A DNA stretch of 64,000 nucleotides from a virus (IMGVR_UViG_3300035698_016128:60120-124119); one strand, 5' to 3'; positions 8,292 to 59,200 are shown, counted from the first letter of the stretch. The notes: generated from the letters alone by a model not told the origin. Translations and numbers: made by a program.

Positions 8292-8303
8292 TAGGGGGAA
8301 ACC

Positions 8304-9432: not shown

Positions 9433-9475
9433 GGGGAAGGGGAAGCCAAGCGCTTTCCTTTCCCCCCTTTTTTTT
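9433..9475 (+). terminator. Rho-independent terminator closing the island operon
   Basis: G-rich/C-rich stem followed by T8. Confidence 0.75.
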
Positions 9476-26818: not shown

Positions 26819-27021
26819 GATTTATCTTTGGCTTCAATGGTGATCATATTAATCTAAGACCATTTGATTCTCCAGGATCAACTTCATTTGAGAAGGCAAA
26901 GAAAGAAGCACTTGAATATCTCTCTTGCCATATCAAAACAATTGCCGACAAGACAAAACAGTTAAGAGAATTAACAGAAAAAGACTTTGTAGAAGGAAAG
27001 GTGAAGGTATTCAAGCTATGA
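26815..27021 (+). CDS. hypothetical protein
   Basis: Coupled ORF. Confidence 0.5.
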   Translation: MRFIFGFNGDHINLRPFDSPGSTSFEKAKKEALEYLSCHIKTIADKTKQLRELTEKDFVEGKVKVFKL

Positions 27022-38550: not shown

Positions 38551-39026
38551 ATTTCAATTTCCTTTTTAATCTATTGGCATTTATCTTTATGTGGCTGACC
38601 GGAGCCTCACGGTTCATGAACGGCTTCAAGACAATAATGATTGACTTTGACGGCGTGCTGTTCCCGACGAACGGAAAGCTTTTCGAAACAGATTTTGAAA
38701 ACAACTCAGTTCCATACACAATGATCTTATTTATTAGCTGGCTATACGAAAATGATTTTAAGGTCATCATCCATACAAGCAGGGTTATCAACAACCCCCT
38801 TCATTATTTCAAAATAAGAAAATATCTTAAAAGATATGGCATCAGGTTTGAATACATCACGGCGATAAAATTTCCAGCCCTGCTATATGTTGACGACTCA
38901 GCCGTTGTGTTCAGCACCGAATGCAAGGGGCAGGATAATAAATACTTCTTTCATTACCTTGTAGAGAAAACAGAAAGAACATTGGAAGAGAAATTGCACA
39001 AACGTAAGGACCAGTGGGGGTTCTAG
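38547..39026 (+). CDS. HAD-family phosphatase
   Basis: IDFDGVL, IHTSR, YVDD. Confidence 0.75.
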   Translation: MNFNFLFNLLAFIFMWLTGASRFMNGFKTIMIDFDGVLFPTNGKLFETDFENNSVPYTMILFISWLYENDFKVIIHTSRVINNPLHYFKIRKYLKRYGIRFEYITAIKFPALLYVDDSAVVFSTECKGQDNKYFFHYLVEKTERTLEEKLHKRKDQWGF

Positions 39027-41693: not shown

Positions 41694-43442
41694 ATGAAAA
41701 TAGTAAAAATCGTAAAAGACATTGATCTCAGTAAGCTCATTGGCACCAACAAAAAACTGAAGGCAGGAAGGTCGTATTTATTCTCTGATCTCTTAGTGGG
41801 CCAGTTAAGCTATATAATCCCAGAGAATATCGGCGTAGCCCTCGATATTAGCGCCATGTACAATGGATACAAAGGAGAAGACCTCAGCGATAAAACTCTT
41901 CTGTGCTGGCGGCACGGTGGCATCGGCGACCTCATGTTTATGATGCCCCCCTTGAGACTGCTGAAGAAGAAATACCCCACATGCAAACTCGTAGTTGCGG
42001 TTGGCGCAAAGTACATAGACATATGGAGAAATATACCATACATAGATGAAGTACATCAGCTTCCAATAGATTCGGATATTCTCAAAGCGGCCGACTACCA
42101 TCTCCACTTCGAACAGATTATTGAGGGAAGCAAGAAGGCAGAAGCCATGAACGCCTATGACTTGTTTCTTGAACGGTTTGGATTCAATTCGGAGGAGGTA
42201 CCCAGTGCAGAAAAGCGCCCCGATATATTCTTTACCACAAAAGAGAAATTGGATGCTGACGCTTTGATGCACAGCGTCAAGTTCAACAACGGAATTACCG
42301 TGGTGGGGCTACAGCTATCCGCAAGCACACCGCTTCGCTCCTTCCCCCATCAGAAAAACTATCTGCTAATCAAAGAATTGGTAAGCCGGGGTATTGCCGT
42401 GATATTATTCGGCGGTCCTGCGCAGATCAAAATGGCAGAGAACATCATGGCAACATTAATCGGCGAAGAACTTCCCGACATTGAAGTCAACGGAGTAACA
42501 TACAAGACAGAAGAGTTGGTGATAAACCTTCCCGGTATGCGATTTTCATTACGGCAATCAATGACTATCGTTGCTCACTGCAACGTCATGGTATGCCCTG
42601 ACAGTTCAATGATACACATATCTGCTGGCATTGGGGTGCCTGTGGTGGGTCTGTACGGGCCGTTTCCTTCTGAGCTACGTATGAAGTACTACTACAACGC
42701 AATTGCCCTTGATGCCAGTACTGCGTGCTCCCCCTGCTTCACTCACACGCATGCGGGTTGCCCGAAGGGGGTACCGTCACCATGCTTCAGCCTGATTGAG
42801 ATTGAACAGATATTAATTGCAATCAATGTCCTGCTCAGCAAGACAAAGCAATGTGCTATGGCAGAAATGGATAAATACAGAAAGAATAAGTTCGCAAATA
42901 TGCTAACCCACTGCGATGACTATCTCACAGGGCATGGGATTGATTTCGGAAGCGGCTACTCTGCATGGCGGTATGAAGATGGTAAGAGAAAGTATGATTG
43001 CATGACAATCGACTTCAACCCGCTGTGCGAACCCGATACGATATTTGATTTCATGGACCCGGTCTTCGTACAAGACAAGCCACCCGAAGGTAAGGAGCTT
43101 GATTATGTTATTTCAAGCTTCAGCGTCAACACAGAGGCACAGCTTACACGAGTCATTGATATGGCCGATACATTGCTTGCCGTAGGCGGTCACCTCATTC
43201 TGTACATAGGTGACAGCAGGTTAACACAGAGCATTGATAACTCCGACGGACTTATGTCGAAGCAAATGGCCGACTACATGCGCAGTGAATTGACTCACGA
43301 GCAGATTGTCGATGCGGTATCCAAAAGAAAATATATGCAAGCCCACGAAGTATTGCCTACTGCAAAATTGACAGATGAAGATTTCGAGCCCATCAGTTCA
43401 AACTTCGGAATCCTTACAGTGTGGAAAAAGTATGCCGACTAA
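41694..43442 (+). CDS. GT9-family glycosyltransferase fused to a SAM-methyltransferase-like domain
   Basis: GGIGDL, CPDSSMIHISAG.GVPVVGLYGP, CSPC...C...C; C-terminal IDFGSG. Confidence 0.85.
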   Translation: MKIVKIVKDIDLSKLIGTNKKLKAGRSYLFSDLLVGQLSYIIPENIGVALDISAMYNGYKGEDLSDKTLLCWRHGGIGDLMFMMPPLRLLKKKYPTCKLVVAVGAKYIDIWRNIPYIDEVHQLPIDSDILKAADYHLHFEQIIEGSKKAEAMNAYDLFLERFGFNSEEVPSAEKRPDIFFTTKEKLDADALMHSVKFNNGITVVGLQLSASTPLRSFPHQKNYLLIKELVSRGIAVILFGGPAQIKMAENIMATLIGEELPDIEVNGVTYKTEELVINLPGMRFSLRQSMTIVAHCNVMVCPDSSMIHISAGIGVPVVGLYGPFPSELRMKYYYNAIALDASTACSPCFTHTHAGCPKGVPSPCFSLIEIEQILIAINVLLSKTKQCAMAEMDKYRKNKFANMLTHCDDYLTGHGIDFGSGYSAWRYEDGKRKYDCMTIDFNPLCEPDTIFDFMDPVFVQDKPPEGKELDYVISSFSVNTEAQLTRVIDMADTLLAVGGHLILYIGDSRLTQSIDNSDGLMSKQMADYMRSELTHEQIVDAVSKRKYMQAHEVLPTAKLTDEDFEPISSNFGILTVWKKYAD

Positions 43443-44499
43443 TGCAATAATCTGTAAGCGAGGGGCTTCAAAGTATAAAGCCCCTAAGGATGTACCTGCA
43501 ACCCTAAAACGCCTCGGGGTAGAATTTGTTCCCGCCAGCACAGGTGCGGAATTACGCATGGATTGCATTGATCCGTCATGCCCCAACCCAAAGAAACATC
43601 TGTACATGAATAAGAAAACTGGGCTGTTCATCTGTCACCGCTGTGGATTAACGGGCAACATTCTAGTACTGGTTAAGATTGTAAAGAAGGTTACAATCTC
43701 TACAGCTAGGTTGATGATCTTCGGTGAGGAAGTATCCTGGGCTCCTACCATGGCCGACCTTCGAAAACGTATTGCCGAAATGCCTGAGCTGGAAACAGAC
43801 ATCGAGCAGACGTTTGGCCTTAAGGTTATCATCAATCCTCCGCCGGGAAGCAAGGGCATAAAGAAAAAACTTTTCCCGAAGATCCTCAACGAACGAAAGA
43901 TACCATATAGTCTTGCCAAGGAGATGGACGTTCGCATGTGCCACACCGAACGATATACCAACAGGTTGATATTTCCTTTCAAATGTAACGGCAATAAGAG
44001 CTTCGTTGCATACAGGACAAACGAGTACCAGAAACCCAAAACCCTTAACCCTTTTGGGTCAGAAAACGAACACCTACTTTACCCCTTCGATTGGGCGCAG
44101 GAAAAAGGCCCAAATTCCAATGACTTAATAGTTGTCGAAGGTATATTTGACTGTTTGCGAATACTTTTGTATAATTATTGTAGTGTTGCACTTCTGAAGA
44201 GCTACCTTAGCGAAGAACAAGCAATACTCCTGAATCAAAGTAAATGCAAACGCATAATTTTTATTCTGGATGGCGATGTGCCACCGGAAAGGTATGAGCG
44301 CAATGCAAAGAATGTTTCCCTTATCACAGAACGTCCTACCTTCTTCTCACCAATCAGTGACGAATGGAAAGACCCTGATCAATTCTCACTAGAGGAATTG
44401 GAGCACCATATTGCTATGGCTAGGCCAGCCGGTCGTGAATTCAGAGTAAGATCCAAGTTAGCAAAAATTCGCAAAAGCACTCGGCATACTATGGCGTGA
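43432..44499 (+). CDS. dnaG: DNA primase (Zn finger + TOPRIM)
   Basis: C...CP...H...CHRC; VVEGIFD; LDGD. Confidence 0.85.
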   Translation: MPTNAIICKRGASKYKAPKDVPATLKRLGVEFVPASTGAELRMDCIDPSCPNPKKHLYMNKKTGLFICHRCGLTGNILVLVKIVKKVTISTARLMIFGEEVSWAPTMADLRKRIAEMPELETDIEQTFGLKVIINPPPGSKGIKKKLFPKILNERKIPYSLAKEMDVRMCHTERYTNRLIFPFKCNGNKSFVAYRTNEYQKPKTLNPFGSENEHLLYPFDWAQEKGPNSNDLIVVEGIFDCLRILLYNYCSVALLKSYLSEEQAILLNQSKCKRIIFILDGDVPPERYERNAKNVSLITERPTFFSPISDEWKDPDQFSLEELEHHIAMARPAGREFRVRSKLAKIRKSTRHTMA

Positions 44500-44569
44500 A
44501 CGGCATATAATAAAGTGAACGGGGTGTGCAAAGAACATAGCAATAAACCAGAGTAAAAAGGAGAGTATC

Positions 44570-45700
44570 ATGGCACGTAAGAAGAAGGATGAGGAAAAGA
44601 AAAAGAAAGAAGAGGAACTGGAGGAAAGCGAATGTCCTGAGTTCGGTAACCCCGATGAGGAGGACGATGCCTGTCAGTCATGCGAGGCGCTGAAAGCATG
44701 CAAGAAGCAGAAGAAGAAGAAACTCGCCGAAGAAGAAGAACCCGACGATGACGATGAAGGGGACGACGATCTCGAAGAAGGTGATGACGAAGATGGCGAC
44801 GATGGGGATGACGACGCCGACGACGAAAACACCGACGACGATGAGGACGATGACGATGATGATGACACCGACGGGGACGAGGACAGCGAAAAAGAAGGCG
44901 ATGACGATCCGGACGATGAAGACGACGAAGACTCGGGCGACGATTCGGGTGAGGCCGACGACGGCGACGATGACGATGATGACGGCGATGATGGCGATGA
45001 TGAAGAGGACGGCGATGGCGATGATGACGATGATGAAGAAGAGCCGCCGCCTCCCAAGAAGAAAAAGGGTAAGAAGAAAATTCAGGTCGACAAATCGGTG
45101 AAGAAAACCAAGGAAGAGAAACCCGCAAGGAAAGAGGGAAAGAAGGAGGACGAGACGATGGCGAAGAAAGGTAAGACGGCGAAGCCCGCCAAGAAGCGTG
45201 AATCGGCCCCGCGAACGCCGATGATTGAAGGAACCCACATCCCCGAGGGGTTCGAGAAGATGATGGCGCTCCTGGAGAAGCGCGGTGAACTTTCGAACAA
45301 GGCCACGGCAACGGTCGTGAAATTCAAGGACGCTCGTATCGGCTCCTTCGTCCGGGGTACGGGCAACGCAGACCGTGCGCGGTTCATCATTTATCGCTCT
45401 GGGGACTGGAAATGCCCCTCCGAATTGGATGCTATGAACAGCGAGAACACCCGGCACAACAGTGAACTGATCGTTACGATCCCGGCCCGGTCCCAGGTCA
45501 AGACCACCAAGGCCATCCTGGAACTGGTCGAGAGCAACATGGCTTCCTTCCGCGCCAAGGCTCCCAAGAAGAAAGCGCCTCCGGCGGAACCCAAGAAGGA
45601 TGTAAAGAAGGCTGGCAAGGCGAAGAAGGCCGCGGAGACGGACGATCCCCCGCCTACCGGGAAGAGCAAGAAGAAGAAGGGCAAGAAAAGCAAAAAGTAA
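44570..45700 (+). CDS. highly charged protein: 4-Cys module, D/E tract, Lys-rich tracts, globular C-terminal domain
   Basis: CPEFG...CQSC...C; about 110-aa acidic tract; PPPPKKKK. Confidence 0.75.
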   Translation: MARKKKDEEKKKKEEELEESECPEFGNPDEEDDACQSCEALKACKKQKKKKLAEEEEPDDDDEGDDDLEEGDDEDGDDGDDDADDENTDDDEDDDDDDDTDGDEDSEKEGDDDPDDEDDEDSGDDSGEADDGDDDDDDGDDGDDEEDGDGDDDDDEEEPPPPKKKKGKKKIQVDKSVKKTKEEKPARKEGKKEDETMAKKGKTAKPAKKRESAPRTPMIEGTHIPEGFEKMMALLEKRGELSNKATATVVKFKDARIGSFVRGTGNADRARFIIYRSGDWKCPSELDAMNSENTRHNSELIVTIPARSQVKTTKAILELVESNMASFRAKAPKKKAPPAEPKKDVKKAGKAKKAAETDDPPPTGKSKKKKGKKSKK

Positions 45701-45804
45701 GGGGAAGCATTTAAATCCCCCCGGTGCTTCACCTTACTGAAAAAAGTGGGTACATGGTCTCGTGTTCGGGGCCGTGTACCCACATCTTCCTTCAGGAGTA
45801 TGCA

Positions 45805-46713
45805 ATGCCCTCCACAGATAAGCAGAAAGAATATGTAGAACGAGCAATCAACAATGCAAACAAGCCGTTCGTCAAACTCATAGGTAAACCACGAGTAGCC
45901 ACAGACGGACGAATCATATATAACACCAAGCCCACCAACCCTGAAGATACCTACCTTGGACATTTCGGCGCAGAAGATATCATATTCCAAAGCCGGTTGA
46001 GCTACAGCGCTTTTGTCCATTACTTCCGCTACACTCATGCAGTCAAGCTGATACCCCGGCAGAAGATGAACATTCTCGACCTTGGGGGTGGCGTCGGAAG
46101 TATTGGTCGAATGCTGTATCAAGCCTTGAAGAAACCCAACTACGCCATGATAGACCTTGACGAACGCATACTCCGCAAGGCAATCAAACGTGGCTATGGA
46201 TTCTGCGACACCCTGTTCATACAGCGCGACCTTCACAGAAAGCTTCCCTTTCGAGATAACTCTTTTGATTTCGTTTTCGCTTACGAAATTCTTGAACATA
46301 TGGATGAAGCCCACGGGCGGAAATTTATCAACGAGATCCACCGGGTACTACGCCGGGGTGGACGCGCCAGCATCAGCACTCCAAACAACTGGCGTGGTGA
46401 AGACCCGAAGGTAAAGGCGCAGAAGTTCCGTAAGTACAAGAAGCATGCCGAGATAACCAAGGGCGGAGCGCTTGACTATCATCCATACGAATGGCATTGG
46501 AAAGATCTCAAATCAATGTTGCTTGAAGCTGGCTTCAAACTCGATAGCTTCTTTGGCCTTGGGTGCCTGAAGCTTAAGGATGTTGACAGCCTTGAGTCAA
46601 AGCAAATGAGTACGCTTGCCGAGTTCCTACCGTCTGATATGGCACGTGCCTTGTGCTATATCCGTAAGCCGCAATGCGCGGAAAATGTTCTCTTTGACTG
46701 CACAAAGGAGTAG
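45805..46713 (+). CDS. class I SAM-dependent methyltransferase
   Basis: ILDLGGGVG, LPFRDNSFDFV, EILEH, STPN. Confidence 0.85.
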   Translation: MPSTDKQKEYVERAINNANKPFVKLIGKPRVATDGRIIYNTKPTNPEDTYLGHFGAEDIIFQSRLSYSAFVHYFRYTHAVKLIPRQKMNILDLGGGVGSIGRMLYQALKKPNYAMIDLDERILRKAIKRGYGFCDTLFIQRDLHRKLPFRDNSFDFVFAYEILEHMDEAHGRKFINEIHRVLRRGGRASISTPNNWRGEDPKVKAQKFRKYKKHAEITKGGALDYHPYEWHWKDLKSMLLEAGFKLDSFFGLGCLKLKDVDSLESKQMSTLAEFLPSDMARALCYIRKPQCAENVLFDCTKE

Positions 46714-46716
46714 GCT

Positions 46717-47315
46717 ATGAAGAGGATCATAACCATGATGATGGTTATTGCTATGTGTGCTGTTATCTCTGGGTGTGTTCGCACCGACAACAAAGATGAA
46801 TGCATGGTAAAGAGCGAAGTAAAGGACGTTGTCATGCAATCGTATGAGGCTGGCATACTCGGCGGATTCGGTGGGGCGCTCAAGTGCACTGGCGAATTAA
46901 TGGAGAAGGCAACGAACGGCGATATGCCCTCGTACAAGATTGAGAGGTTTCTTGAAGAATGCACGACGGCCTCGAAGCGAGACCTCATGCGGAAATTCAA
47001 AAGAGAAATGGGTAGAATAGACTGAGGGGGCAACTCATGAGGCGCAAGAAAGCACTCAAGAAACTCCAGGCATTCAGAACAAACCTTGATAGGCCATGTT
47101 TTGAGGACAAGTACCTGCTGGCAAAGGCCGAGCATATAAATGTAGTCAATTGGCTCATAGGTTTCTATTATAGAAAGCCACATAGGAGAGACATAACGCC
47201 GGAGGAGATGATTGAATTGGTTTTTGACAATTATCATTGTTCGGCTGAACAGAAATTAGTATGGGGGAAGATCTTATATTATTGGAATAAATATAAAACA
47301 ATAAGGGGATTTTGA
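46717..47315 (+). other. two small CDSs: lipoprotein-like 46717-47025 and hypothetical 47037-47315
   Basis: Lipobox-like ISGC; RBSs. Confidence 0.6.
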
Positions 47316-48634
47316 TGGCGAACAGAATTCCAAAACTTAAAGATGACTACAATCCGTATGTTGATAAACTTACTGGCGGTAGAATCAAACGCAATCTGCA
47401 TATTGGATTCTGTTCATATTGGTTCAAGCTGATCCCTGTGATGGACGACCACATTTCGAAGAACAACCTTGAAACGATCTACATCCGGGAACTGCTCAAG
47501 CTTGGGTATGTTTATTGGCTTGGCCTTAGCCCCAAAACATTCCAAATAGAGCACCCTAGAGCCATAAATACGGCACTTGAAGTGATGAAAACCCCCCAGT
47601 GGAACCGTGAGCGCTTCGGCACCACACCAGACTATATGCAGTACTGCATTGAGAACTACGATAAACCAGAAGTCGGCATGAACTTGCCGAAGTTGGACTT
47701 TGTTTTTTGGAACGCCATGCCAACCTTCGTTCGAAGGAACGCACGCAATTACATCATGCTCCATGAGTATTCAATCAAGCAACGGGTGCCTGTGGTAACG
47801 TATGACCTCGGCCTTGAAATTGTAGGACAAGGACTGAAGCATGTGGACAGCGGTGGGCTACGTGAAGACTTCAACGAGGGTAAGCTCATGAACATCTCGG
47901 GGTATGACTACCGGGATAAAGCGGCTCACCTGAAGATGAAGGACAAGCTAGTGCACATTGTCCAGACAGGCGATTGGGGTGTTGAACTTTTACAACGCGG
48001 GCATCCGTTGCTTCGCTTCTGTACATGGTGGTTGCCCTACGATGAAGAGCAGTTGCCCGTTCAGCCAATCATAACCGATAAGAAAGAACTTGAATACAAA
48101 ATGGTATACGTGGGCAACGATAACAGACGCCGTGGCACCATGAAGAAATGGTACGGTAAGCTTCCGAGTGGGTACATGAGTATATTCGGCGGGAACTACC
48201 GGAAAGATTTAGGCACCTCATGGCCCGAGGAAGTCGTTGCCCGTTACCCCAACATCAAATTCAACGGCCCCGTAGCCATTAAGGATGTCAACGGAGTGTA
48301 CAGCAAGGCGGTAGCCACCCTCAACTTGGCAGTACCCCCGTTCGAAAAAGTAGGAGTTCAGGTATGGCGGCATTTTGAAGCGCCGCTTGGCGGGTGCGTC
48401 CTATTGATACCAAGCTCAACATACCACGCCGAAGACCTCTGCTTTGATGAAGCCCTTGTTATGGATGGCCCTGAGCATACCGTTGCCACGGTAAATATGC
48501 TCAGAAAAAACATGAAGCTCCGACGCGATATAATTATGATGCAGAGAGAAGAAGTGAAAAAGCGCTACACCATGAAGAAGAACATGCGTAATCTATTCAG
48601 GGAAATTGGCAAGGAAATCCCGCCAACGAGGTAG
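47315..48634 (+). CDS. GT-B glycosyltransferase (CgeB/T4 beta-glucosyltransferase-like)
   Basis: VYVGNDNRR, FNGPV, WRHFEAPLGGCVLL. Confidence 0.7.
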   Translation: MANRIPKLKDDYNPYVDKLTGGRIKRNLHIGFCSYWFKLIPVMDDHISKNNLETIYIRELLKLGYVYWLGLSPKTFQIEHPRAINTALEVMKTPQWNRERFGTTPDYMQYCIENYDKPEVGMNLPKLDFVFWNAMPTFVRRNARNYIMLHEYSIKQRVPVVTYDLGLEIVGQGLKHVDSGGLREDFNEGKLMNISGYDYRDKAAHLKMKDKLVHIVQTGDWGVELLQRGHPLLRFCTWWLPYDEEQLPVQPIITDKKELEYKMVYVGNDNRRRGTMKKWYGKLPSGYMSIFGGNYRKDLGTSWPEEVVARYPNIKFNGPVAIKDVNGVYSKAVATLNLAVPPFEKVGVQVWRHFEAPLGGCVLLIPSSTYHAEDLCFDEALVMDGPEHTVATVNMLRKNMKLRRDIIMMQREEVKKRYTMKKNMRNLFREIGKEIPPTR

Positions 48635-48636
48635 TC

Positions 48637-49005
48637 ATGGGCAACCTGACTGTTCTGAAATTACTCCGGCAAGCAAGCGGAATGACACTTGATCATGTCG
48701 ATAAGACTGGCGTATCAAAGTGGACATACACACTTGTTGAAGCTGGCACTTACAAAACATCAGCCAATATCAGGGTTAAGATATCAAAGCTGTATGGGCT
48801 TAAGTCAAAACGTTTGTTTGATTCCAAGGGATATGCAAAAAAGATTTCAATGAAAGAAGCAAAAATATTTGTTAAACATAAGAGTAAAGGAGAGCCTAAT
48901 GAAGTGGTTGATAAAAGTAAACCTGTCAAGCGCAGAGTGCGTAAACCTGTCAAGCGGTCTGGCGGTACAATTAGAAGTAGTCCCACGAAAAGAAGACCAT
49001 CATAA
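48637..49005 (+). CDS. XRE-like HTH protein with basic tail
   Basis: LKLLRQASGMTL...GVSKWTYTLVEAG. Confidence 0.7.
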   Translation: MGNLTVLKLLRQASGMTLDHVDKTGVSKWTYTLVEAGTYKTSANIRVKISKLYGLKSKRLFDSKGYAKKISMKEAKIFVKHKSKGEPNEVVDKSKPVKRRVRKPVKRSGGTIRSSPTKRRPS

Positions 49006-49565
49006 AGTTACTACATGGCTATATAATGTAGGCCATGAGAATGATGCTACTCACATGGACTCCTTCCATGACAGTTATATCGAAGCCTGCACTTACATCA
49101 AAGATTTTGTGGAGTTTATCAAAGACGAAAATGCAGACTTCTTCATGATAGAAAGCGAGTGACCCCGGCATGGAAAATCCTTCTGTACGTATTGATTTCT
49201 TTGGCCCACAGACATGGATACAGCGGTGGCGCAACATCTTTATCATATGCAAGAAATCAAATGAGATGCGCAAAATCACCGGCTACCGTGCAAAGTGGAG
49301 GACTATCAAGAGTTTCATTTGGTACCTGCACATGACGCGATGCTCCAAGAAGGCTGGAAGTTGGATGTATAGGCGCAGCAATGCTCAGGCAGCGGCAGCT
49401 AAAAATGGGCTTGTCCTAAATATTAGCCCGCTTCCGCCAAAGAAGATACGCAAGGAAATGTACAGGCAAATGAATGAAGTCAAGAAGGCCGAAGAAGAAA
49501 TGAAGAGAAGACTTCCAAATTTATATATACCATTCCCTCCCACCGGCAGTCAGGAGCCACAATGA
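48899..49565 (+). other. two small hypothetical CDSs (about 48899-49162, 49170-49565)
   Basis: ORF track and RBSs. Confidence 0.5.
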
Positions 49566-50197
49566 AAGCAGACGTGCTTCGAATTCAAAGAACATTATTC
49601 GCCAGAAACCTCAGTACCACCCATTATGTGGACGGTAAATTCATAGCCGATTGTGTTACACTCTTCTCCCGCCTCAAGTGCCAGAATTGCGGACTGTACG
49701 GACGCGCTATTCTCTGCCCACCGCTTCAAGCCATGACGCTACCGCAATTTGAGACCATTAATGGGTGCCGGGACTACTACCTTCATCATGTCAAAGGGGC
49801 AACAGTCTTCGTGTTTAAGAATGACGGCACTAAGCCGTGGAAACGCAATGAGAAGGAACTTGCACACATTGAGTTTAAAAGACGCTATGGGAGGCAACTC
49901 AAGGGCGTGGAAAACGGTTCTGCAAAGGAAATCAACAAGCAAATGAAGAAGCTTCAAACCCGTATGCGAAAAAGCGGGTTCAAGGCACGTTCTCTTATCG
50001 CTGGTCACTGTGACGTATGCGTGGGGCATCACAGGTGTCCGAACCGTGAGAACCCTCCGTGCAAAAAGGATGGCCTCACAAGCCTGGAGGCTACCGGCAT
50101 TGATGTATACAAAATGCTACACGGGCTGAAGGTATCGTTTGAGTATCCTGCTTTAAACGAGCTCACTCAGGTAACGATGATGGTGGTGGAAAAATGA
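49562..50197 (+). CDS. DUF2284-like metal-binding protein
   Basis: CQNCGLYG...CPP; AGHCDVC...C...C...SLEATGIDV. Confidence 0.75.
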   Translation: MKADVLRIQRTLFARNLSTTHYVDGKFIADCVTLFSRLKCQNCGLYGRAILCPPLQAMTLPQFETINGCRDYYLHHVKGATVFVFKNDGTKPWKRNEKELAHIEFKRRYGRQLKGVENGSAKEINKQMKKLQTRMRKSGFKARSLIAGHCDVCVGHHRCPNRENPPCKKDGLTSLEATGIDVYKMLHGLKVSFEYPALNELTQVTMMVVEK

Positions 50198-50738
50198 AAC
50201 GCTATGATGCATACAAGATTGAAAGAAGAGGCACGCAATTCAGAGTATTACGTAAGATAAAAACTTTTTTCAAAGGAGTGCATTGGCGTGAAATGGGCAA
50301 TAACCACGTTGATATGGGCGGATTAATTACATTTGTACCAAAAATATATAATTGTGAAGAAGATGCGCTTGGCTCAATTGCTAAGATGAGAGAGGCTGAA
50401 TCAAATATTAGCAAAGAATGGAAACAAATAAACAAATTGGGGAAAGACAAATGAAAAAAGCAATCGTATTGTTTGCGCTGGCTATGGCCCTAGCAACTCT
50501 CCCTGCGTGCACAGAGGCAGAAACATATTGGTGTAAGCAAATCGCTGATATGGATGTTAGGCAAGGTAGTTGGGGAGCCTCATCCAAATTCATAATAATA
50601 TTTACAGATAAAACAAAAATTATATATATATGCGACGGAAATAGACCAAGAGATTTCTGTTGGAGTACCCCAATGTCCGGCGGTTTCTTTTGCATGACAA
50701 ATAGGGGAGCAACGTATAGTTCAAGGAGGAGCAAATAA
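50194..50738 (+). other. two small CDSs: 50194-50454 and lipoprotein-like 50451-50738
   Basis: Lipobox-like LPAC. Confidence 0.55.
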
Positions 50739-50739
50739 T

Positions 50740-51360
50740 ATGAACGAAGAAGAACGCATTGCAAAATACTTTGCCGATCATAAGAGTTTCACATGGGCAC
50801 CGCCCAACAATCCCGGCATACGATTGGTTAGAAAAATAAGATTAAAAAATGTTGAGGTTAAGCTTGACATAAAGAAGCTGACGAAGTTAAAATGTTACCT
50901 ATACCAAGTGGAAAAGCTTGGTATCACTGCGCTAAACCTCCAGCAAGAATTCGAAGGCAAGACTCTGATGATATACGAAAAGAAGGGTGGCAACCCCTCT
51001 TCTCGACGCAGGAAGTGTCCGTGGTGCTATGCCCCAACTGATGATTTTTTAGAACACATCAGCGAGGTTCATAACAAAAGCATTACAAATATTGTGTATC
51101 TTAAGTTTCAACAGAACCTTTACAAAGAATTGTTACGTGTCGTGCGGGAAACCCGCTTCTACTTCGCAACCATGTTTCTGAACGCTGGCTGTCAGTTATG
51201 TGATAATCCGGTAATGAAGGGGCGGGAACTGTGCTGTTCCATTCCAACATCGTTTCGCGACAGGGCAAGGAACCTGAGAGTGCTTGGGCTTTATGCAGAC
51301 GGGCTTGATCAGGAGTACCTGACGAACCCTGAAATGGGGCAGATACTTCTCGCACCGTAA
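50740..51360 (+). CDS. C2H2 Zn finger plus DUF2284-like protein
   Basis: CPWC...H...H; FLNAGCQLC...C...RARNL..LG. Confidence 0.6.
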   Translation: MNEEERIAKYFADHKSFTWAPPNNPGIRLVRKIRLKNVEVKLDIKKLTKLKCYLYQVEKLGITALNLQQEFEGKTLMIYEKKGGNPSSRRRKCPWCYAPTDDFLEHISEVHNKSITNIVYLKFQQNLYKELLRVVRETRFYFATMFLNAGCQLCDNPVMKGRELCCSIPTSFRDRARNLRVLGLYADGLDQEYLTNPEMGQILLAP

Positions 51361-51375
51361 GGAGAGTAACCCGCA

Positions 51376-52566
51376 ATGCTATTGACTGTAGAAGAAACTA
51401 ATGTCAATTCTCTATTTTATAAGACAATAAAAGACCATGACCTTCATGGGGAGATACAGCATATACGTGGCACTACTCGCAAAGAAATACAGAATTATAT
51501 GTTCAGGCTTCATACCCCCGCACAGAATATGTTGTTCATCCCATACCGCTACACGAACCCTCCTGCTATCATCGCAGAGACCCTGTGGGTACTAGCTGGC
51601 CGAGATGATATGTGGTTTCTGAAGTACTATCTTAAGAACGCCGTGAAATATAGCGACGACGGTTTAGTATGGCGTGGAGCATACGGGCCACGACTGTGCA
51701 ACTACCCCACCAAAGATGATGAGGGTCGGGGCGTGATCGTTAATCAAATTGACAGGTTGCTTTCTTACATGAGACGGGACCGCCTCACCACACGCGGTAT
51801 GCTGGTAATCCCTGACGGTAGGGATTATCAACTCAACGAGGACGGCGAAGAGAAGATAGATGAACCCTGCACCATATTCGTTCAGTACATGCACCGGGAG
51901 TCAACTCTCAACTGTACAGTAAACATGCGAAGCAACGACATAGTATTAGGATGCTTCAATGTGAACCTATTCGAATGGACATACCTACAGCAACTTATCG
52001 CTAATGAATTGAATACCGCAACTGGTTTCTACACAGTCACCGCAACGAGCATGCACATGTATCAGAATTGGATTAAAGCCCTGCCCCTTCTCATTGACAA
52101 TGAACCTTCCCTTGATATATATTCAGTCATAGAACCTAAGAAGCAAACCCTTAATTGGACGCAGTTTAAAGTAGAGCTTCCGAAGCTATTATATTTCGAA
52201 CAGGAACTACGTAAAACGAGTCATGATCAATTCACTGATTATGCCCTAAGCCTACAGCCAAAACTCCACGAAGACCTTTATGATGCCCTATTGGTGATGA
52301 TGGTTACGCTTGCGCATAAGCAGTCAGCCCACGCTTCATTGGGCGTCCTATTGCCCTTGATGAAGAATGACGTTTGGCTTGTGGCAAGCCTTGAGTATAT
52401 GGTCAGACGGCTAGGCACCACCTTTCACAGCTTGGTACGTAAAATCTTTGAAGAGACCCTTGCTGTACGATATGAAAAATACCAACTCATTTTGTTCAAC
52501 TACATCTTCCATAGCTTGAACGAAAAAGAAGCTAGGGATCGACTAGAAGGAATAAGGGCAAGGTGA
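51376..52566 (+). CDS. thymidylate-synthase-fold protein, dUMP hydroxymethylase-like
   Basis: AETLWVLAGR, GAYGPR, EPCT, MRSNDIVLGCFNVNLFEW, SMHMY; long C-terminal extension. Confidence 0.75.
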   Translation: MLLTVEETNVNSLFYKTIKDHDLHGEIQHIRGTTRKEIQNYMFRLHTPAQNMLFIPYRYTNPPAIIAETLWVLAGRDDMWFLKYYLKNAVKYSDDGLVWRGAYGPRLCNYPTKDDEGRGVIVNQIDRLLSYMRRDRLTTRGMLVIPDGRDYQLNEDGEEKIDEPCTIFVQYMHRESTLNCTVNMRSNDIVLGCFNVNLFEWTYLQQLIANELNTATGFYTVTATSMHMYQNWIKALPLLIDNEPSLDIYSVIEPKKQTLNWTQFKVELPKLLYFEQELRKTSHDQFTDYALSLQPKLHEDLYDALLVMMVTLAHKQSAHASLGVLLPLMKNDVWLVASLEYMVRRLGTTFHSLVRKIFEETLAVRYEKYQLILFNYIFHSLNEKEARDRLEGIRAR

Positions 52567-52771
52567 TGGGCCATAAATTCACACAGGCAAATATAGATAA
52601 ATTAGAAATGGATAAGAAGATTGCTAAGATTTTAAATGATTTTCAAGAGAAATGGAGATTGAAAGTTACATCTGTATACCTTCAATACCTTTAAGAAGAA
52701 TTCTCAACTGATCAGCCAATAAGAAATGTAGATGTAAATACATCAATAGAAGAATCACTATAGGAGAAAGA

Positions 52772-54970
52772 ATGAAGCTTACACCTACGGCGCGAAAAGT
52801 CCTGAACAAACGTTACCTCAGAAAGGATGAGCATGGGGTTGTAATTGAGAAGCCCGAAGATATGTTTCGGCGAGTTGCTGACGCAGTATCTGAACCTGAA
52901 TCTCGAAAAGAAGATGGAACAAATGGCCCTCCGTATCAAACGCAAAAAAGAGAAGAATGGAGAGATAAATTTTACAATGCAATGACCAGCATGGAGTTCC
53001 TCCCCAACAGCCCTACGCTCATGAATGCTGGCCGAGTGCTTGGTCAGCTATCTGCATGCTTTGTCCTTCCGGTTGGGGATAGCATCGAAGAGATATTTGA
53101 TGCTGTAAAGTATACTGCCTTGATTCATAAGAGTGGGGGCGGTACAGGGTTTGACTTCTCTAAGCTACGTCCAAGTAACGATACCGTTAAGACAACACAG
53201 GGTATATCAAGTGGCCCTGTGAGTTTCATGTCCGTGTTTGACTGCGCCACGGAAACAATAAAGCAGGGCGGTACACGCAGGGGTGCCAACATGGGCATTC
53301 TCCGATGCGATCACCCGAACATCCTCGACTTCATTGACTGCAAGGATTCCAGCCGACACAGCAACTTCAATATCAGTGTAGCCGCCACCGATGAATTTAT
53401 GCGAGCCGTCAACAACGATGAGAACTACAATATCACCAACCCACGCACCGGAGAAGTCGTAAGGGAAATTAGTGCCGTCCATGTCATGCAGTGCATTGTC
53501 GAACAGGCATGGCGACACGGCGACCCCGGTCTTATCTTCATTGATGAAATAAATAAGCACAATCCCACCCCGCACCTTGGTCGTATCCGTGCAACAAACC
53601 CATGTGGCGAACAGCCGTTATTGCCATGGGAAAGTTGCAACCTCGGAAGTATCAACCTTGCAAAGTTCGCTTCTGATAGCGGATTTGACATGGTACGGTT
53701 GGAAGAAACTATCCGCCTTGGGGTACGGTTTCTTGATAATGTTACAGACATTAATAAGTATCCTCTTGAAGAAATTGACAGGGTGACCAAAAGCACAAGG
53801 AAGATAGGGCTTGGCGTTATGGGGTGGGCTGATGCGCTTGCCATAATGGGCTTGAGATATGACAGTGAAAAAGCAATCACCAAGGCCCAAAGATTAATGC
53901 ATGAATTCAGATCCATTGCAACTGAGGAAAGCAAACACCTTGGCGAACAACGAGGCTTCTACCCTGAATGCCAAAATGTGCCAAACAACCCCGAGCATCC
54001 AAGGCGCAATGCGACCGTCACAACTATCGCACCCACCGGAACCCTCAGTGTCATTGCCGGATGCAGTAGTGGTATTGAACCGTTCTTCGCATTAGCTATG
54101 CGCCGTAACATAATGGACGACGATACCTTTTTTGAAATTCAAAACACAGTGGAAGACATGTTGGCGGAAGCGCCTGATGGTTTTCGTATCTCCGAACACA
54201 TCAAGAGTACAGGTTCTCTCGAAGGATGCAAATATGTCACACCTGACATGGAAAGCATTTTTCGAACAAGCCACCAAATCCATTTCAAATGGCATATCAG
54301 AATGCAAGCGATGTTTCAGGTATACATCGACAATGCTGTGAGCAAGACCATCAACCTGCCACACGAGGCAACCGAAGAGGATATCAAAGAAGCTTATCTA
54401 GAAGCATGGGGAACAAAGTGTAAGGGCATTACGATTTATCGCGACCGTAGTAGAGATGCCCAAGTTCTTGAAGCTGGTCATGGAGAAGTAACAATCATGG
54501 TTGATGAAAAGGCAAAAACAGAACCGAAGGACAGGCCAAAGCAAATGAATGGCACCACCGGCAGGATTGATACGAGTTGTGGAACAATGTATGTGACCCT
54601 GAATCGTGATGCGAGTGGCAAGCCATTTGAGGTTTTCACAACCATAGGAAAGGCCGGGGGGTGTGCTTCCAGCCAAAGCGAAGCGCTTGGTAGGCTCATT
54701 TCCCTTTGTTTAAGGGCCGAAATCAAGCCCTCACACGTAATTAAGCAGTTGAGGGGTATCACGTGCCACCTACCGTGTGGCTTCGGCCCTAACAAGGTAT
54801 CTTCGTGTCCTGATGCTGTTGCCCTTGCAATACAGGAGATACTTGGCGAAGAAGCAGTGCCGGAAGAAGTCAAGAAGAATAATCGTGGTGCTTGTCCCGA
54901 TTGTAATGCGCCCATTGAACCCGGAGGCGGTTGTGTCGCGTGCAGAATATGCGGCTGGGCAGAATGCTGA
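52772..54970 (+). CDS. nrdJ: class II (B12-dependent) ribonucleotide reductase with TSCPD-like C-terminus
   Basis: PNSPTLMNAG, SACFV, GGGTG, TNPCGEQ, CNLGSIN, TIAPTGT, KGITIYRD. Confidence 0.92.
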   Translation: MKLTPTARKVLNKRYLRKDEHGVVIEKPEDMFRRVADAVSEPESRKEDGTNGPPYQTQKREEWRDKFYNAMTSMEFLPNSPTLMNAGRVLGQLSACFVLPVGDSIEEIFDAVKYTALIHKSGGGTGFDFSKLRPSNDTVKTTQGISSGPVSFMSVFDCATETIKQGGTRRGANMGILRCDHPNILDFIDCKDSSRHSNFNISVAATDEFMRAVNNDENYNITNPRTGEVVREISAVHVMQCIVEQAWRHGDPGLIFIDEINKHNPTPHLGRIRATNPCGEQPLLPWESCNLGSINLAKFASDSGFDMVRLEETIRLGVRFLDNVTDINKYPLEEIDRVTKSTRKIGLGVMGWADALAIMGLRYDSEKAITKAQRLMHEFRSIATEESKHLGEQRGFYPECQNVPNNPEHPRRNATVTTIAPTGTLSVIAGCSSGIEPFFALAMRRNIMDDDTFFEIQNTVEDMLAEAPDGFRISEHIKSTGSLEGCKYVTPDMESIFRTSHQIHFKWHIRMQAMFQVYIDNAVSKTINLPHEATEEDIKEAYLEAWGTKCKGITIYRDRSRDAQVLEAGHGEVTIMVDEKAKTEPKDRPKQMNGTTGRIDTSCGTMYVTLNRDASGKPFEVFTTIGKAGGCASSQSEALGRLISLCLRAEIKPSHVIKQLRGITCHLPCGFGPNKVSSCPDAVALAIQEILGEEAVPEEVKKNNRGACPDCNAPIEPGGGCVACRICGWAEC

Positions 54971-55108
54971 ATTTTGCCCAGACTGCAATGTAGAAATGAA
55001 ACAGAAGCGTATGTACCTTGTACGTGATATGTCAGAACTCTTCTGGCTATGCCCAAAATGCGGTAAAGTATGGCGATTGTATAATAACCTAAAGTAAAGG
55101 AGACCATC

Positions 55109-55606
55109 ATGGCAGAGAAAAAGAAACACGCCCATTCAATCAACGACACATTCACCCTACAAGGCAACGGAATTGATGGGGGCTTCTACGCCATACCGGA
55201 CAGCAGTGGGTTGCCAGTTATCGTAGGATGCATACTGACTGACGGTACGAATATTGCGCGGGGTATGTCCTTCTACAAATACGAGCCGGAGTGGCCCTGC
55301 AATATCGAGATGGGTTCTCGCGGTGCTCTGTGGAATGCGATGAAGGCCATGACGGAAAAGAAAAACTCAAGCCCATTCAATATATTCTCACAGACAGAAT
55401 ATGAAACGGATGGTAAGAAAATCACGCCACGTATTCGTGACTGCGGGAAGCACCTGTTTATCCACGGACTTGAATGGCTGGTTGACGCACAGCACAACAT
55501 CTACCACAGCTTCTATAACCCGAAGCGCCTCACCAAGAAAGAAAAACGAATCATCTTCAGCATCAAGCGTAAGGAGAGAGAAGCCAGCAAAACCGACACC
55601 GTTTAA
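55109..55606 (+). CDS. hypothetical protein
   Basis: AAGGAG RBS. Confidence 0.65.
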   Translation: MAEKKKHAHSINDTFTLQGNGIDGGFYAIPDSSGLPVIVGCILTDGTNIARGMSFYKYEPEWPCNIEMGSRGALWNAMKAMTEKKNSSPFNIFSQTEYETDGKKITPRIRDCGKHLFIHGLEWLVDAQHNIYHSFYNPKRLTKKEKRIIFSIKRKEREASKTDTV

Positions 55607-55621
55607 GCCAAGGGGAAGGGC

Positions 55622-56200
55622 ATGCTTGTACAACCAAACCTGAATAAAGAACAGTTGTTCATGGAGATGTGCGTGACACTCTCTCGGGCGAGCAAGTGCA
55701 TTTCGAGAAGGGTAGGCGCTGTCATTGTCGGCCCTGAGAATGTGGTCCTGTCTACAGGATACAACGGCCCTCCGAGAAATGTTCCGCATTGTGGTGACAG
55801 ATACTTCGCCGACCAAGCGCTTATCAAGGAACTTACGAGGCGGGGTATTGATCCCAACCTATACAACCGGCGACATTCCTCCTTCGGCGGCACGGTTCCT
55901 TGTCCCAGAAATGTCATGCAGTTCCCCTCTGGTGAAGGAATGGAGTGGTGCATAGCAAGCCACGCAGAACAGAATGCAATACTTCAATCAGCAATGGTAG
56001 GGGGGCCAGCGCTTCGGGGAAGTCGTATGTATATCAGTGCTCCTTCGCCGTGCAGAGAATGCATGAAGGCAATCATCCAAGCTGGCATTGTTGAGTTGAT
56101 ATGCCAAGGCAAAGGGTGGTATGATGGTTCTGTCAAATTCTTGGCACAGTCAACGGGCATCAAAATCCGCAAGCACATAGACCCTAGGCAAGAGGCATAG
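55622..56200 (+). CDS. dCMP deaminase
   Basis: STGYNG, HAEQNA, PCRECMK. Confidence 0.92.
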   Translation: MLVQPNLNKEQLFMEMCVTLSRASKCISRRVGAVIVGPENVVLSTGYNGPPRNVPHCGDRYFADQALIKELTRRGIDPNLYNRRHSSFGGTVPCPRNVMQFPSGEGMEWCIASHAEQNAILQSAMVGGPALRGSRMYISAPSPCRECMKAIIQAGIVELICQGKGWYDGSVKFLAQSTGIKIRKHIDPRQEA

Positions 56201-56201: not shown

Positions 56202-59200
56202 ATGAAATTCGCCCACCTCCATCTTCATTCTGACGGTAGCTTACTTGATGGTGTAGCTACCCCAAAGTCATTTCTCGAAGCGGCAAAGAAAAAAGGGATA
56301 GCCGCGATTGCATTCACAGACCATGGTGCCATGGGCGTGCACTTGGAGGCTCAGCTTGAAGCGGCGAAGATTGAAGATTGCCCGAAGGTACTATTTGGGA
56401 GTGAATTCTATGTTGTGGATGACATTGATGCCCGTGTACGTGCTGAACCCAAACGGCACCTCGTACTCATTGCCAAGGATAATGATGGATACAAGAACCT
56501 CATTGCCCTGAACAACTTTGCATGGCGCAACTTCTATTACAAGCCAAGGGTAGACTTCGAAACAATCAAGAAGCATTCCAAAGGGCTCGTAGCCCTAAGC
56601 GCTTGTGCGAAGGGCGTTGTTGGCAGTCACATACTTGCCAATGATTACGACAACGCGATTAAAGCCACCAAGAAGTACAAGAAGGTCTTTGGCAGTGACT
56701 TCTATCTTGAGATGCAATTAATCAACATCATGGTTGATGGCGTTAATCTCCAAGAGAATGTCAACGAGGCAATGCTCGTACTATCCAAGAAGTTTAATAT
56801 TGAATACGTCATTACAAATGATTGCCATTACATTGAGGCAAAGGACCACGAGCTCCAATCAAAGGTGCTTCACCTTTCCACCGATGTCGGGTTTATATTT
56901 GCAACGAATGACCTTTGGCTACGTACCAAAGATGAATTCGAACAGGCCCGCAAGGAGTACTTTGAAGATACCATCACGCATAAGGCCATGCTCAAAGGGC
57001 TGAAGAATACAATAAAGATTGCTGAGCAGTGCGATGTTAATATACCGATTGGCGGTCAGCACATCCCTGAGTTCGATCACACCATGCATAAGGAATACAA
57101 GAAGGGCAGTAAGAAAGAGTTCTTTCATCGCCTATGTAAGAGAAAACTGAACGCATTCCTCATGGATAATCCAAAGCTTGATCAGGCTGAATACATGGAG
57201 CGACTTGATTATGAGCTCGACGCGATTGATAAGATGGGTGCGATTGATTATTTCCTTATTGTGGAAGATCTCATTGCTTACCTCCGTGGTCTTGGCAATC
57301 TCGTTCTTATCAGAGGCAGTGCCAACGGCAGTCTGGTTTGCTACGTTCTTCGGTTTGGTTACATTGACCCTATTAAACACCAGATACTTTTCGATAGATT
57401 TATTTCTCCTGCTCGTGTTGAATCTGGCCTTTTTGATGTTGACATTGATATTGATATGGAGTCAGAAATCAGGTCTGTTGCCCTAGTTTATTTAAAGGAG
57501 CGCTACGGCGAAGATAAAGTCTGTAGCGTTGGCAGTTACGGGCGCTTGCAGTGGAAGGCCGCGATTAAAGATATGGCACGTGTTGAGGCGCTGGAAATCA
57601 AATACAAAATTGATAAGGATAAGTCTTTATCGACAGGTGAAATATTAGAGTTGGAAGATAGGCTGTCGCAGGTAAGTTTCCAGCAAATGAATAATGTCAC
57701 CCGCCTACTTGAGCATGGTAGCAAGCAGGAAGGTGGGGATATTTCCATAGAAGAGAGCATTCAGAAGTACCCCGAACTTGAGAAGTGGTGGGCTATAAAT
57801 AAAAATTGGATCAAACGCTTTGTTGCCCCTGTTGTTGGCATACGCAAGAGTGCCAGCATACATCCCGCCAGTGTTGTCGTGCTCCCCGGTGCGCTTGATG
57901 ATTGGCTTCCGGTCAGAAGTCAACCTAATCCCAGAAATAAAAATGAAAGACTTCTCTGTACCCAGTGGGAAGGCTCACATACAGGCCGAGAAGACTTACG
58001 TGCATACGGGGTAATGGCACTCGACGTCCTTGGAGTTAAAACATTATCAATCTGTGCCGCCGCAATGCGGGATGTCAAAAAGAATCATGGTGCTGATATT
58101 TCTTTCGAATCAATGTCACTGAAAGACAAGAGAACAATCCGTGGCTTCAAGGAGGGAGAAACTCTTGGCGTGTTCCAGTTGAGCGCCCCAACGGTTACAC
58201 AGATTGTTAAAGACATTGCCCCTGACTGCTTCGCTGATGTAGCCAACCTGACAGCCATTGACAGGCCGGGGGCGTTAGCGAATAAGGCCCATGTGAGCTA
58301 TGCCAAGCGTAAACACGGCAAGGAACCCGTTGAGGTACTGCACCCTAGCATTTCCCCTATCATGCATGACACCTACGGCATTCCAATATACAGTGAACAC
58401 ATCATGCTTATATCCAAGGCGTTCGCAGGGTTCTCTCCCGTTGAGGCCGAACACTTACGGCAGTTGATGAAAAGCAAGGACAGGAAAATATTCGCCCAGT
58501 ACGAAGAGAAATTTATTAAGGGCGCAATGAAACTCCATGGGAAAAAGGTTGAAGCGCGGGCCAATAAAATTTGGAAGATGATACTAAAATTCGGGGCGTA
58601 CAGTTTTCCAAAAGCGCACGCCACAAGTTACGGACTCATCTCGTGGATGACAATGTACCTCAAAACAAATTACCCGGCTGAGTTTTTCGCAAGCCATCTG
58701 AACTACAGTGATCATAAGGGCTACGCCGAAATCAGAGCAGTTGCCAAGCGTCACTATAAGATAAAATTTGTACTTCCTGAAGTTAATGCCTCGTCCGATA
58801 AATTCACAGTAAGGGACGGAAAGATTATATGGTCACTCAGTGGCATCAAGGGCATTGGCGGTAAGGCGCTTGAAGATATTGTAGCAAAGCAACCCTTCAC
58901 ATCGTTTGACGATTTCCATGAGCGTGTGAATAAGCGACAGGTAAACGTAGCAAGGATAACAAGTCTCATATATGCAGGGTGCTTCAGAAAGTTTGGAGAA
59001 CCGTTGCAGTTATTCAAGCGACTGTTTGATCTTCGCAAGGCTGAGAAGAAGAAAGAGGTATTCAATAAAGAGCTTGAGTCATATGGGAAATCAGATTGGC
59101 TTAAGGCCAAGACTGAATTCCTTGGCTTCCAAACAGCAGGGTTCCAAACCTTATTCAAGGCTGATATAGTGGGCTATACGTTCACCCCGCTATCAGAATT

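Follow-up and report, generated by a model that had tools for sequence, protein, structure and literature searches.

The question raised by the replication region of the virus record IMGVR_UViG_3300035698_016128 is whether this uncultured phage carries in its DNA a glycosylated form of 5-hydroxymethyluracil (hmU), that is, a base resembling base J, and which of its genes would make it. The window analyzed in this study is a 64,000-bp stretch (record positions 60120-124119; coordinates below are window positions unless stated otherwise) that forms the terminal 64 kb of the 124,119-bp IMG/VR record, whose completeness is estimated at ~75%. A preliminary description of the segment 41694-56200 had proposed that a thymidylate synthase (TS)-like hydroxymethylase, a deoxycytidylate (dCMP) deaminase, two glycosyltransferases (GTs), methyltransferases, two DUF2284-like proteins, and a phosphatase serve to make hmU carrying a multi-sugar, possibly methylated, chain. 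The core of this proposal, comprising the hydroxymethylase, the deaminase, and a GT similar to the β-glucosyltransferase (BGT) of phage T4, is retained here on the grounds of active-site signatures, a GT fold resembling that of T4 BGT, and the inheritance of these genes as a single block; the multi-sugar methylated chain is not. In our judgment, the chances are about evenly balanced that the block, together with the dCMP deaminase, makes hmU DNA pre-replicatively and then glycosylates hmU on the DNA.

The predicted hydroxymethylase is a TS homolog of 396 amino acids (aa) encoded on the plus strand at 51376-52566 (PF00303, E 8e-18; phrog_5131, E 1e-45), with the TS core at approximately residues 29-266 followed by a C-terminal extension. 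Its motif MRSNDIVLGCFNVN is aligned to RSCDVFLGL-PFN of the Escherichia coli enzyme, which places an Asn at N177, as the preliminary description had noticed for the dUMP-specificity position. In the E. coli numbering, C146 corresponds to Cys165, L143 is replaced by Asp162, D169 corresponds to Asp188, and N177 to Asn197. According to the alignments and a signature table, the TS-fold core (R166, S167, Y94, H207, and Y209) and the catalytic Cys are all conserved. As described by Lee et al. (PMC13326640), N177 versus Asp discriminates between the uracil and cytosine substrates, a bulky L143 versus Asp or Glu discriminates between the methyl and hydroxymethyl products, since the acidic residue admits water to the exocyclic methylene, and D169N is the mark of flavin-dependent 5-hydroxylases. 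The signature D143/D169/N177 is common to the TS homolog and to the SPO1-type, ViI-type, and Montesquieu enzymes; the signature is D143/D169/D177 in the TS homolog of phage vipetofem and L/D/N in E. coli ThyA. Asp at the L143 position is found in every hydroxymethylase of the table, including T4 gp42. At the specificity position (N177), T4 gp42 has Asp179, the alignment in the table being off by one column at this point. The D169N replacement of the flavin-dependent 5-hydroxy-pyrimidine synthases (RB69 gp48 / DLP3 gp80 type) does not occur in the TS homolog, which, having Asp at this position, lacks the 5-hydroxylase signature. The combination of Asn at N177 with Asp at both L143 and D169 therefore predicts a dUMP hydroxymethylase, and judging by these residues we consider this assignment quite probable.

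Similarity searches point in the same direction. The best match of the TS homolog in the PDB is the CMP hydroxymethylase MilA (E 3e-21 versus 5e-8 for ThyA), and its scores against the NCBIfam TS equivalogs are far under the cut-offs (59 versus 175 bits and 51 versus 327 bits). The W80 position is occupied by Ala in the TS homolog, as in the ViI-type and Montesquieu enzymes, and by Met in the SPO1-type enzyme. Among phages, the closest-matching TS homologs come from SPO1-like and ViI-like phages, two groups with hmU-derived DNA.

The candidate hmU-DNA glycosyltransferase is a GT-B enzyme of 440 aa encoded at 47312-48634 on the plus strand, whose sole Pfam match is PF13524 (CgeB-like, E 2e-10). 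Its family is tiny, with ten clusters in 5.8 billion proteins, all of them metagenomic. The AlphaFold2 model, built on metagenomic homologs (predicted local distance difference test, pLDDT, 66.7; predicted template modeling score, pTM, 0.67), has a clear GT-B fold that can be superposed on the two-Rossmann fold of T4 BGT. T4 BGT is top-ranked in both structure comparisons of the model; it occupies Foldseek ranks 1-6 (best E 6e-9), followed by BshA and MshA as further structural neighbours. In addition, the top match in a library of viral models is annotated "DNA beta-glucosyltransferase" (E 1.4e-9). Thus the BGT/CgeB-like label of the preliminary description agrees with both the family match and the nearest fold. 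That this GT may act on hmU in DNA is suggested by its fold, the gene position, and co-inheritance with the TS homolog.

To analyze this co-inheritance, all genes of the genome were mapped onto nine contigs of closer relatives (L020-L028), in which the GT is 52-91% identical. The loci of relatives came only from a search with the GT9-methyltransferase fusion considered below and from one metagenome scan; single-protein and alignment-based scans of IMG/VR with the TS homolog, the GT, and the DUF2284 protein gave no relatives beyond the phage's own record. The conserved order is primase, the 376-aa acidic/basic protein, (class I methyltransferase), BGT-like GT, and a helix-turn-helix (HTH) protein, followed by (a 131-aa open reading frame), the DUF2284 protein, the zinc-finger protein, the TS homolog, and ribonucleotide reductase. 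The GT, DUF2284, zinc-finger, and TS homolog genes are syntenic in contigs L021-L026. The zinc-finger protein is co-inherited in L021 (its gene there being cut off by the contig end), L023, L024, and L026, the C-terminal domain of the 376-aa protein is retained in L020, L022, L024, L025, and L028, and the position of the HTH protein is retained in L020-L023, L025, and L027. The stand-alone methyltransferase is present in L020, L021, L022, and L028 and absent from L023 and L024, and the TS homologs of the latter two contigs keep D162, C165, D188, and N197. In addition, the block of L023 contains a 670-aa protein without a family and, in place of the class I enzyme, an FkbM methyltransferase (1928-3940 and 5512-6180, respectively), and a calcineurin-like phosphoesterase lies inside the block of L024 (12388-13194). 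Since relatives hold such extra genes within it, the block looks like a variable tailoring cassette.

The replication module, with the GT9-methyltransferase fusion between DnaB and primase, is found in full in more distant relatives (L002-L004), whose fragments contain neither the BGT-like GT nor the 396-aa TS homolog; no match to PF00383, the dCMP deaminase family, was found in the fragments of relatives G001-G004. Elsewhere the distant relatives have a divergent TS-like gene with N177 present and Tyr or His at L143, which suggests ordinary dTMP synthesis. In its 248-251-aa product (L019:1090-1836 and L017:1081-1836, in relatives G001 and G003), C146, R166, S167, D169, and N177 are kept and the E58/W80 region is gone. 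The hydroxymethylase, BGT-like GT, DUF2284, zinc-finger, and acidic protein genes thus behave as one acquired unit of ~8 kb (44570-52566). The dCMP deaminase has been seen only in the block-bearing genome of the window, and no close-relative contig reaches its position.

This deaminase, listed as a neighbour in the preliminary description, is encoded at 55622-56200 on the plus strand (PF00383, E 1e-18; phrog_174, E 2e-32) and has intact HAE and PCxxC zinc motifs. It fits the supply of dUMP to a pathway of the Asn (uracil) type. In the proposed pathway, the deaminase, assigned by its family, would turn dCMP into dUMP, and the TS homolog, as its active-site signatures suggest, would use methylene-tetrahydrofolate to convert dUMP into 5-hydroxymethyl-dUMP (5hmdUMP) rather than dTMP. 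Kinases outside the identified gene set would bring 5hmdUMP to hmdUTP, and the phage DnaE-type polymerase would put hmdU in place of T. Finally, acting on duplex DNA, the BGT-like GT-B enzyme would attach to the 5-CH2OH group a sugar taken from a nucleotide-sugar of the host, and the resulting nucleobase would resemble base J.

Several enzymes of other modification pathways were searched for. The preliminary description had seen no hmU-DNA kinase in the window, and this can be extended to the whole 124-kb record, where tblastn and phmmer with the ViI-type kinase detected no homolog; nor does the record contain a homolog of the Montesquieu aGPT-Pplases. The 298-aa P-loop protein at 39028-39924 was considered as a kinase candidate and rejected, being unrelated to the ViI-type kinase; it adjoins DnaB and is kept in relatives without the hydroxymethylase, so a helicase loader is more likely. 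No match to PF12851, representing the TET/JBP dioxygenases, was found in the genome, and control genomes were equally silent in the same search. Among the scanned proteins of the window, none was recognized as an enzyme for the synthesis of ADP-heptose or other nucleotide-sugars.

The second GT of the preliminary description is a fusion of a GT9 (heptosyltransferase-like) domain with an S-adenosylmethionine (SAM) methyltransferase (582 aa, 41694-43442, plus strand). The fusion is confirmed: the GT9 part matches PF01075 (E 6e-15) and the profiles of 3TOV and 1PSW from the PDB (E ~1e-17), and in the C-terminal methyltransferase part, which matches the profile of 1VLM (E 5e-4), the motif GxGxDxGxG is invariant. 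The protein also contains an invariant Cys cluster, CxxC..H..C..C, at 345-364. It is far below the cut-offs of the lipopolysaccharide (LPS) heptosyltransferase equivalogs and hence is not an ortholog of WaaC or WaaF of LPS synthesis. All relatives found, including L002-L004, L022, and L024, have the fusion after DnaB and ahead of primase. Since some of them have no hydroxymethylase, BGT-like GT, or dCMP deaminase, the fusion is not tied to hmU. We conclude that this clade-core gene is probably not a member of the hmU module. Shorter homologs of the fusion (~500 aa) are encoded by some viral contigs of very large size, for instance, one of 469 kb (L013).

Upstream of DnaB, the 159-aa protein encoded at 38547-39026 (plus strand) had been described as a HAD phosphatase. 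This stands as far as the motifs (DFDGV...T/S...DD) and one PHROG match (phrog_1238, E 8e-10) are concerned, and the protein has no Pfam, NCBIfam, or PDB match. No homolog was detected in L002-L004 or L020-L028, making it specific to this phage, and its link to the hmU pathway is uncertain. The PHROG label suggests a phosphoheptose isomerase that could supply ADP-heptose for the GT9 domain; this assignment was rejected because the protein has HAD motifs instead of a SIS domain and is encoded by a gene that the relatives do not share.

The remaining members of the block are all on the plus strand. The first gene, at 44570-45700, encodes the acidic/basic 376-aa protein, recognized by its sequence features: ~110 residues of almost pure Asp/Glu, Lys-rich flanks, and a conserved domain at 218-329 with weak structural likeness to DUF1801/DUF5655 in a structure atlas. 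Such a protein might either mimic DNA or bind to it. DUF5655 also occurs at the C-termini of GmrSD restriction enzymes. The stand-alone SAM methyltransferase at 45724-46713 is a class I enzyme (PF13649, E 9e-17), in agreement with the preliminary description. Its true start is probably near 45802, and a perfect hairpin with a 17-bp stem (45746-45783) lies between the gene of the 376-aa protein and this likely start. Directly after the GT, a small HTH protein is encoded at 48637-49005 (PF01381, E 8e-4, below the curated cut-off).

Of the two DUF2284-like proteins reported earlier, only one is confirmed. The protein encoded at 49562-50197 matches DUF2284 (PF10050, E 2e-15; 57.4 bits versus a cut-off of 25) and contains seven conserved Cys in a nitroreductase-like fold; all matches of its model are flavoenzymes of the nitroreductase superfamily, NAD(P)H:FMN oxidoreductases among them. 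It possibly plays a redox role. This subfamily is rare, with 27 cluster representatives among 1.8 billion. In some selenoproteins, DUF2284 is fused to class I methyltransferases (PMC13188914), which echoes the presence of a class I methyltransferase in the block. The Cys-rich 206-aa neighbour at 50740-51360 has no significant similarity to it (BLASTP E 0.4, hhalign probability 3.9%); alignment reveals a C2H2-type finger (CPWC..H..H) and CxxC..CC, library scans gave no family match, and a look-up in the structure atlas gave only weak leads. Together with the class I methyltransferase, the DUF2284 and zinc-finger proteins accompany the GT and the TS homolog, and they may have a part in tailoring the modification or in its regulation.

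The genes on the plus strand from ~18.8 kb onward constitute a replication and nucleotide-metabolism module. Its 5' part consists of an AAA+/VWA (CobS/CobT-like) pair, a sigma-like protein, and an SF2 helicase, followed by DnaB (39935-41263), the GT9 fusion, primase (43375-44499), and the block. The downstream boundary of the block is formed by a class II-type ribonucleotide reductase (52772-54970, plus strand; PF02867, E 1e-125), after which come the dCMP deaminase and the DnaE-type polymerase (56202-59477). This polymerase is less than 30% identical to every phage polymerase in the collection searched, and megablast retrieved no match to the region, and no related phage record, from the phage collection. 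The phage represents a new lineage. A scan of the region for sigma-70 promoters and terminators gave results at chance level. The AAA+ (CbbQ/NorQ-type) ATPase and the 808-aa CobT-type VWA protein (31448-34953) are kept as a pair in all relatives, and "CobS/CobT-like" pairs occur in many large phages. Other genes, in the early/middle region of the window, encode a nucleotidyltransferase similar to Pol-beta/Pol X (19640-20380), a small radical SAM protein of activase/QueE-like size (23220-23972), and a protein with a weak match to TRM5/TYW2-like methyltransferases (26925-27746).

An early operon at 6983-9506 contains no VGAB/VTCB words on either strand in 2,523 bp, versus ~55 per kb window-wide. 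A modification made in a defined sequence context may explain such an operon of 2.5 kb, and we mention this tie to context-specific DNA modification as speculation. Outside the window, a late-operon tailoring cluster on the minus strand adjoins the tail genes (G000:C1 5882-17352, locus L032). According to Pfam, it contains two radical SAM/SPASM enzymes, a B12-binding radical SAM enzyme, a class I methyltransferase with an N-terminal P-loop, a GT1, an FkbM methyltransferase, and a GT2. This cluster could be either a late extension of the DNA modification or a sign that glycosylation is aimed at non-DNA targets such as virion proteins.

A number of observations weigh against glycosylated hmU as the product. 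The quality of the GT model is middling, and generic GT4-type enzymes are within ~2 Z units. BLAST and phmmer comparisons of the GT with T4 BGT and vipetofem BGT detected nothing at E<=1, and hhalign, covering the C-terminal domain only, gave a probability of 28% to T4 BGT and 56% to vipetofem BGT. The co-inheritance amounts to one presence/absence contrast among related phages, that is, to one gain or loss event, and the relatives are represented by fragments 14-46% complete. Positions 147 and 165 of the TS homolog, Thr and Met, resemble those of cytosine-type enzymes. The phylogeny suggested in the preliminary description did not help: in a maximum-likelihood tree of 11 TS homologs, five of the eight inner branches are weak, all branches are very long, and the TS homolog falls in no functional clade. 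We rejected this tree as evidence either way, and, as it fails to resolve, the hydroxymethylase assignment rests on the signature and not on phylogeny. The second glycan-type cluster, in the late operon, clearly makes glycosylation of proteins or the envelope an option. Finally, the 124-kb record, at its ~75% completeness, yielded no dNMP kinase, thymidylate kinase, dUTPase, or MazG, the usual companions of full T replacement.

The same observations bear on four alternatives. The phage could contain plain hmU DNA as in SPO1, its GTs, including the BGT-like one, acting on virion proteins, envelope glycans, or small molecules. This is possible but unlikely: GT-B enzymes acting on small molecules or lipids (BshA, MshA, PimA) score nearly as well structurally, there is no sequence-level match of the GT to T4 BGT, the GT9-methyltransferase fusion is independent of the hydroxymethylase, and the late-operon GT1, GT2, FkbM, and radical SAM genes by the tail genes make non-DNA glycosylation plausible; however, the BGT-like GT lies inside the replication and nucleotide module, where it and the TS homolog are passed on within one block, and T4 BGT and a "DNA beta-glucosyltransferase" top the structure comparisons and the viral library, respectively. 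At the other extreme is the multi-sugar methylated chain of the preliminary description, for which the BGT-like GT would act on hmU jointly with the GT9-methyltransferase fusion and the stand-alone methyltransferase. Two GTs and two methyltransferase domains do lie within 7 kb, the block of L023 has an FkbM-type (sugar-type) methyltransferase, thymidine oligosaccharides are known in YerA41, Carin-5, and SP-15 (PMC13697223; PMC12686479), and one preprint describes reconstitution of heptose on 5-hydroxymethylcytosine (5hmC) DNA (bioRxiv 10.1101/2023.12.21.572611). Nevertheless, we consider such a chain improbable, and its assembly by all the enzymes listed earlier is not supported: the GT9 fusion is a clade-core gene occupying the same place in relatives without the hydroxymethylase, BGT-like GT, and dCMP deaminase, the stand-alone methyltransferase is missing from L023 and L024, where the rest of the block is kept, the HAD-like gene is unique to this phage, a second DUF2284 protein is not confirmed, and no enzymes of ADP-heptose or other nucleotide-sugar synthesis were recognized among the scanned window proteins. 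A related scheme, in which hmU formation and BGT-like glycosylation are followed by tailoring by the methyltransferase and the nitroreductase-fold Fe-S protein of the DUF2284 family, which is not known to act in DNA modification, would be an undescribed thymidine hypermodification and appears distinctly unlikely.

The two other alternatives question the TS homolog itself. It could be an ordinary TS, or irrelevant to modification, with its neighbours forming an unrelated accessory island. The family goes under the name "thymidylate synthase" in the databases, true TS likewise has N177 and D169, the small tree does not contradict this, being unresolved, and the record lacks dUTPase and dNMP kinase; yet the water-excluding L143 is replaced by Asp, the Ala at W80 is shared with the ViI-type and Montesquieu enzymes, the equivalog scores fall well short of the cut-offs, and the best solved match is a hydroxymethylase, MilA, rather than ThyA, all of which makes an ordinary TS quite improbable. 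Least probable of all, in our opinion, is that the TS homolog and the DUF2284 protein form a redox pair installing a non-hydroxymethyl C5 group (for example, a hydroxyl) on dUMP, which is then glycosylated. Flavin-dependent hydroxylases exist among TS homologs, such as the 5-hydroxy-dCMP synthases (PMC13326640), the only matches of the DUF2284 model are nitroreductase-superfamily flavoenzymes, and in contigs spanning both positions the co-inheritance of DUF2284 and the TS homolog is strict; against this, the diagnostic D169N is absent, Asp188 being kept, and three other genes lie between the two. We return to hmU made by the TS homolog and glycosylated by the BGT-like GT for the comparison with known systems.

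Glycosylated 5-hydroxymethylcytosine in T-even phages and glycosylated hmU in trypanosome base J are textbook DNA modifications. With respect to hydroxymethylases, the closest counterparts are the dUMP hydroxymethylases of SPO1 (gp29), ViI/Kuttervirus, and Glutamicibacter phage Montesquieu, which have the same C146, D143, D169, and N177; the C-terminal extension is partly shared by the SPO1-type homolog. They differ from the window TS homolog in that the identity is only 25-33% and in its Thr and Met at positions 147 and 165. The modification in SPO1 stops at hmU, whereas in ViI-type and Montesquieu-type phages a DNA kinase and/or aGPT-Pplase act after hmU, and neither was found in the window phage; in Montesquieu the TS homolog gene is flanked by two aGPT-Pplase genes. 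The M6 pathway, like those of ViI and Montesquieu, is set apart from the window phage by the kinase/aGPT-Pplase. The phages SP-15, YerA41, and Carin-5 have glycosylated T-derived bases and encode TS homologs and several GTs, but their sugars are on a long linker of the dihydroxypentyl type, they use a special A-family polymerase in place of the DnaE-type one, and they share no gene block with the window phage.

From metaviromes, Pyle et al. (bioRxiv 10.1101/2023.12.21.572611; cited as Cell Rep 2024 in PMC13229309) report GT-B enzymes of this structural type that modify hydroxymethylpyrimidine DNA and show a statistical association with ThyS and dCMP deaminase, next to which they are encoded in viral contigs; these enzymes have the same structural neighbours (T4 BGT, BshA, and MshA) as the window GT. 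Since this association is published, the kind of system considered here is already known. In that study, the reconstituted products are on 5hmC, the ThyS-linked clusters are counted and not typed as uracil or cytosine, and the section consulted on co-occurring genes makes no mention of companions such as DUF2284, the zinc-finger protein, or the acidic protein. The literature searched describes neither native glycosyl-hmU in the DNA of a phage nor a phage that makes a sugar-hmU base by a pre-replicative TS-homolog route; gene surveys predict base-J-like DNA of this kind.

If confirmed, the 440-aa GT would represent a new family of DNA glycosyltransferases with the fold of T4 BGT and no detectable sequence similarity to it, an enzyme of which could serve for 5hmU labelling, and the block would provide the first functional context for DUF2284. 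DNA of this kind would resist restriction enzymes and amplification, which bears on the under-sampling of such phages. For annotation, the lesson is that "thymidylate synthase" homologs can be typed by three active-site positions.

The predicted end product is of the same kind as β-D-glucosyl-hydroxymethyluracil, the base J of kinetoplastids, that is, a sugar on hmU in DNA, but the routes are different. In kinetoplastids, a TET/JBP dioxygenase (JBP1/2) oxidizes T in DNA and the glucosyltransferase JGT is a GT-A enzyme, whereas in the window phage a TS homolog would act on dUMP and the sugar would be added by a GT-B enzyme. If confirmed, this would be base-J-type DNA in bacterial viruses, arisen by a route unlike the kinetoplastid one. 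The logic of the pathway is the same as in the T4 system of gp42 and β-glucosyltransferase, which yields glucosylated 5-hydroxymethylcytosine: a TS-fold hydroxymethylase acts before replication, at the level of the mononucleotide, and a GT-B enzyme then adds a sugar to the hydroxymethyl group on the DNA. In T4 and Enterococcus phage vipetofem, whose BGT is annotated as such, the hydroxymethylase and BGT genes are also close together. The differences are the 90 additional residues, the PF13524 match, and the lack of detectable sequence similarity of the 440-aa GT relative to T4 BGT, and the specificity position of the hydroxymethylase, which is Asp (cytosine) in the T4 and vipetofem pair and Asn (uracil) in the window phage. 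By analogy, the system would work like that of T4 gp42 and β-glucosyltransferase switched from cytosine to uracil.

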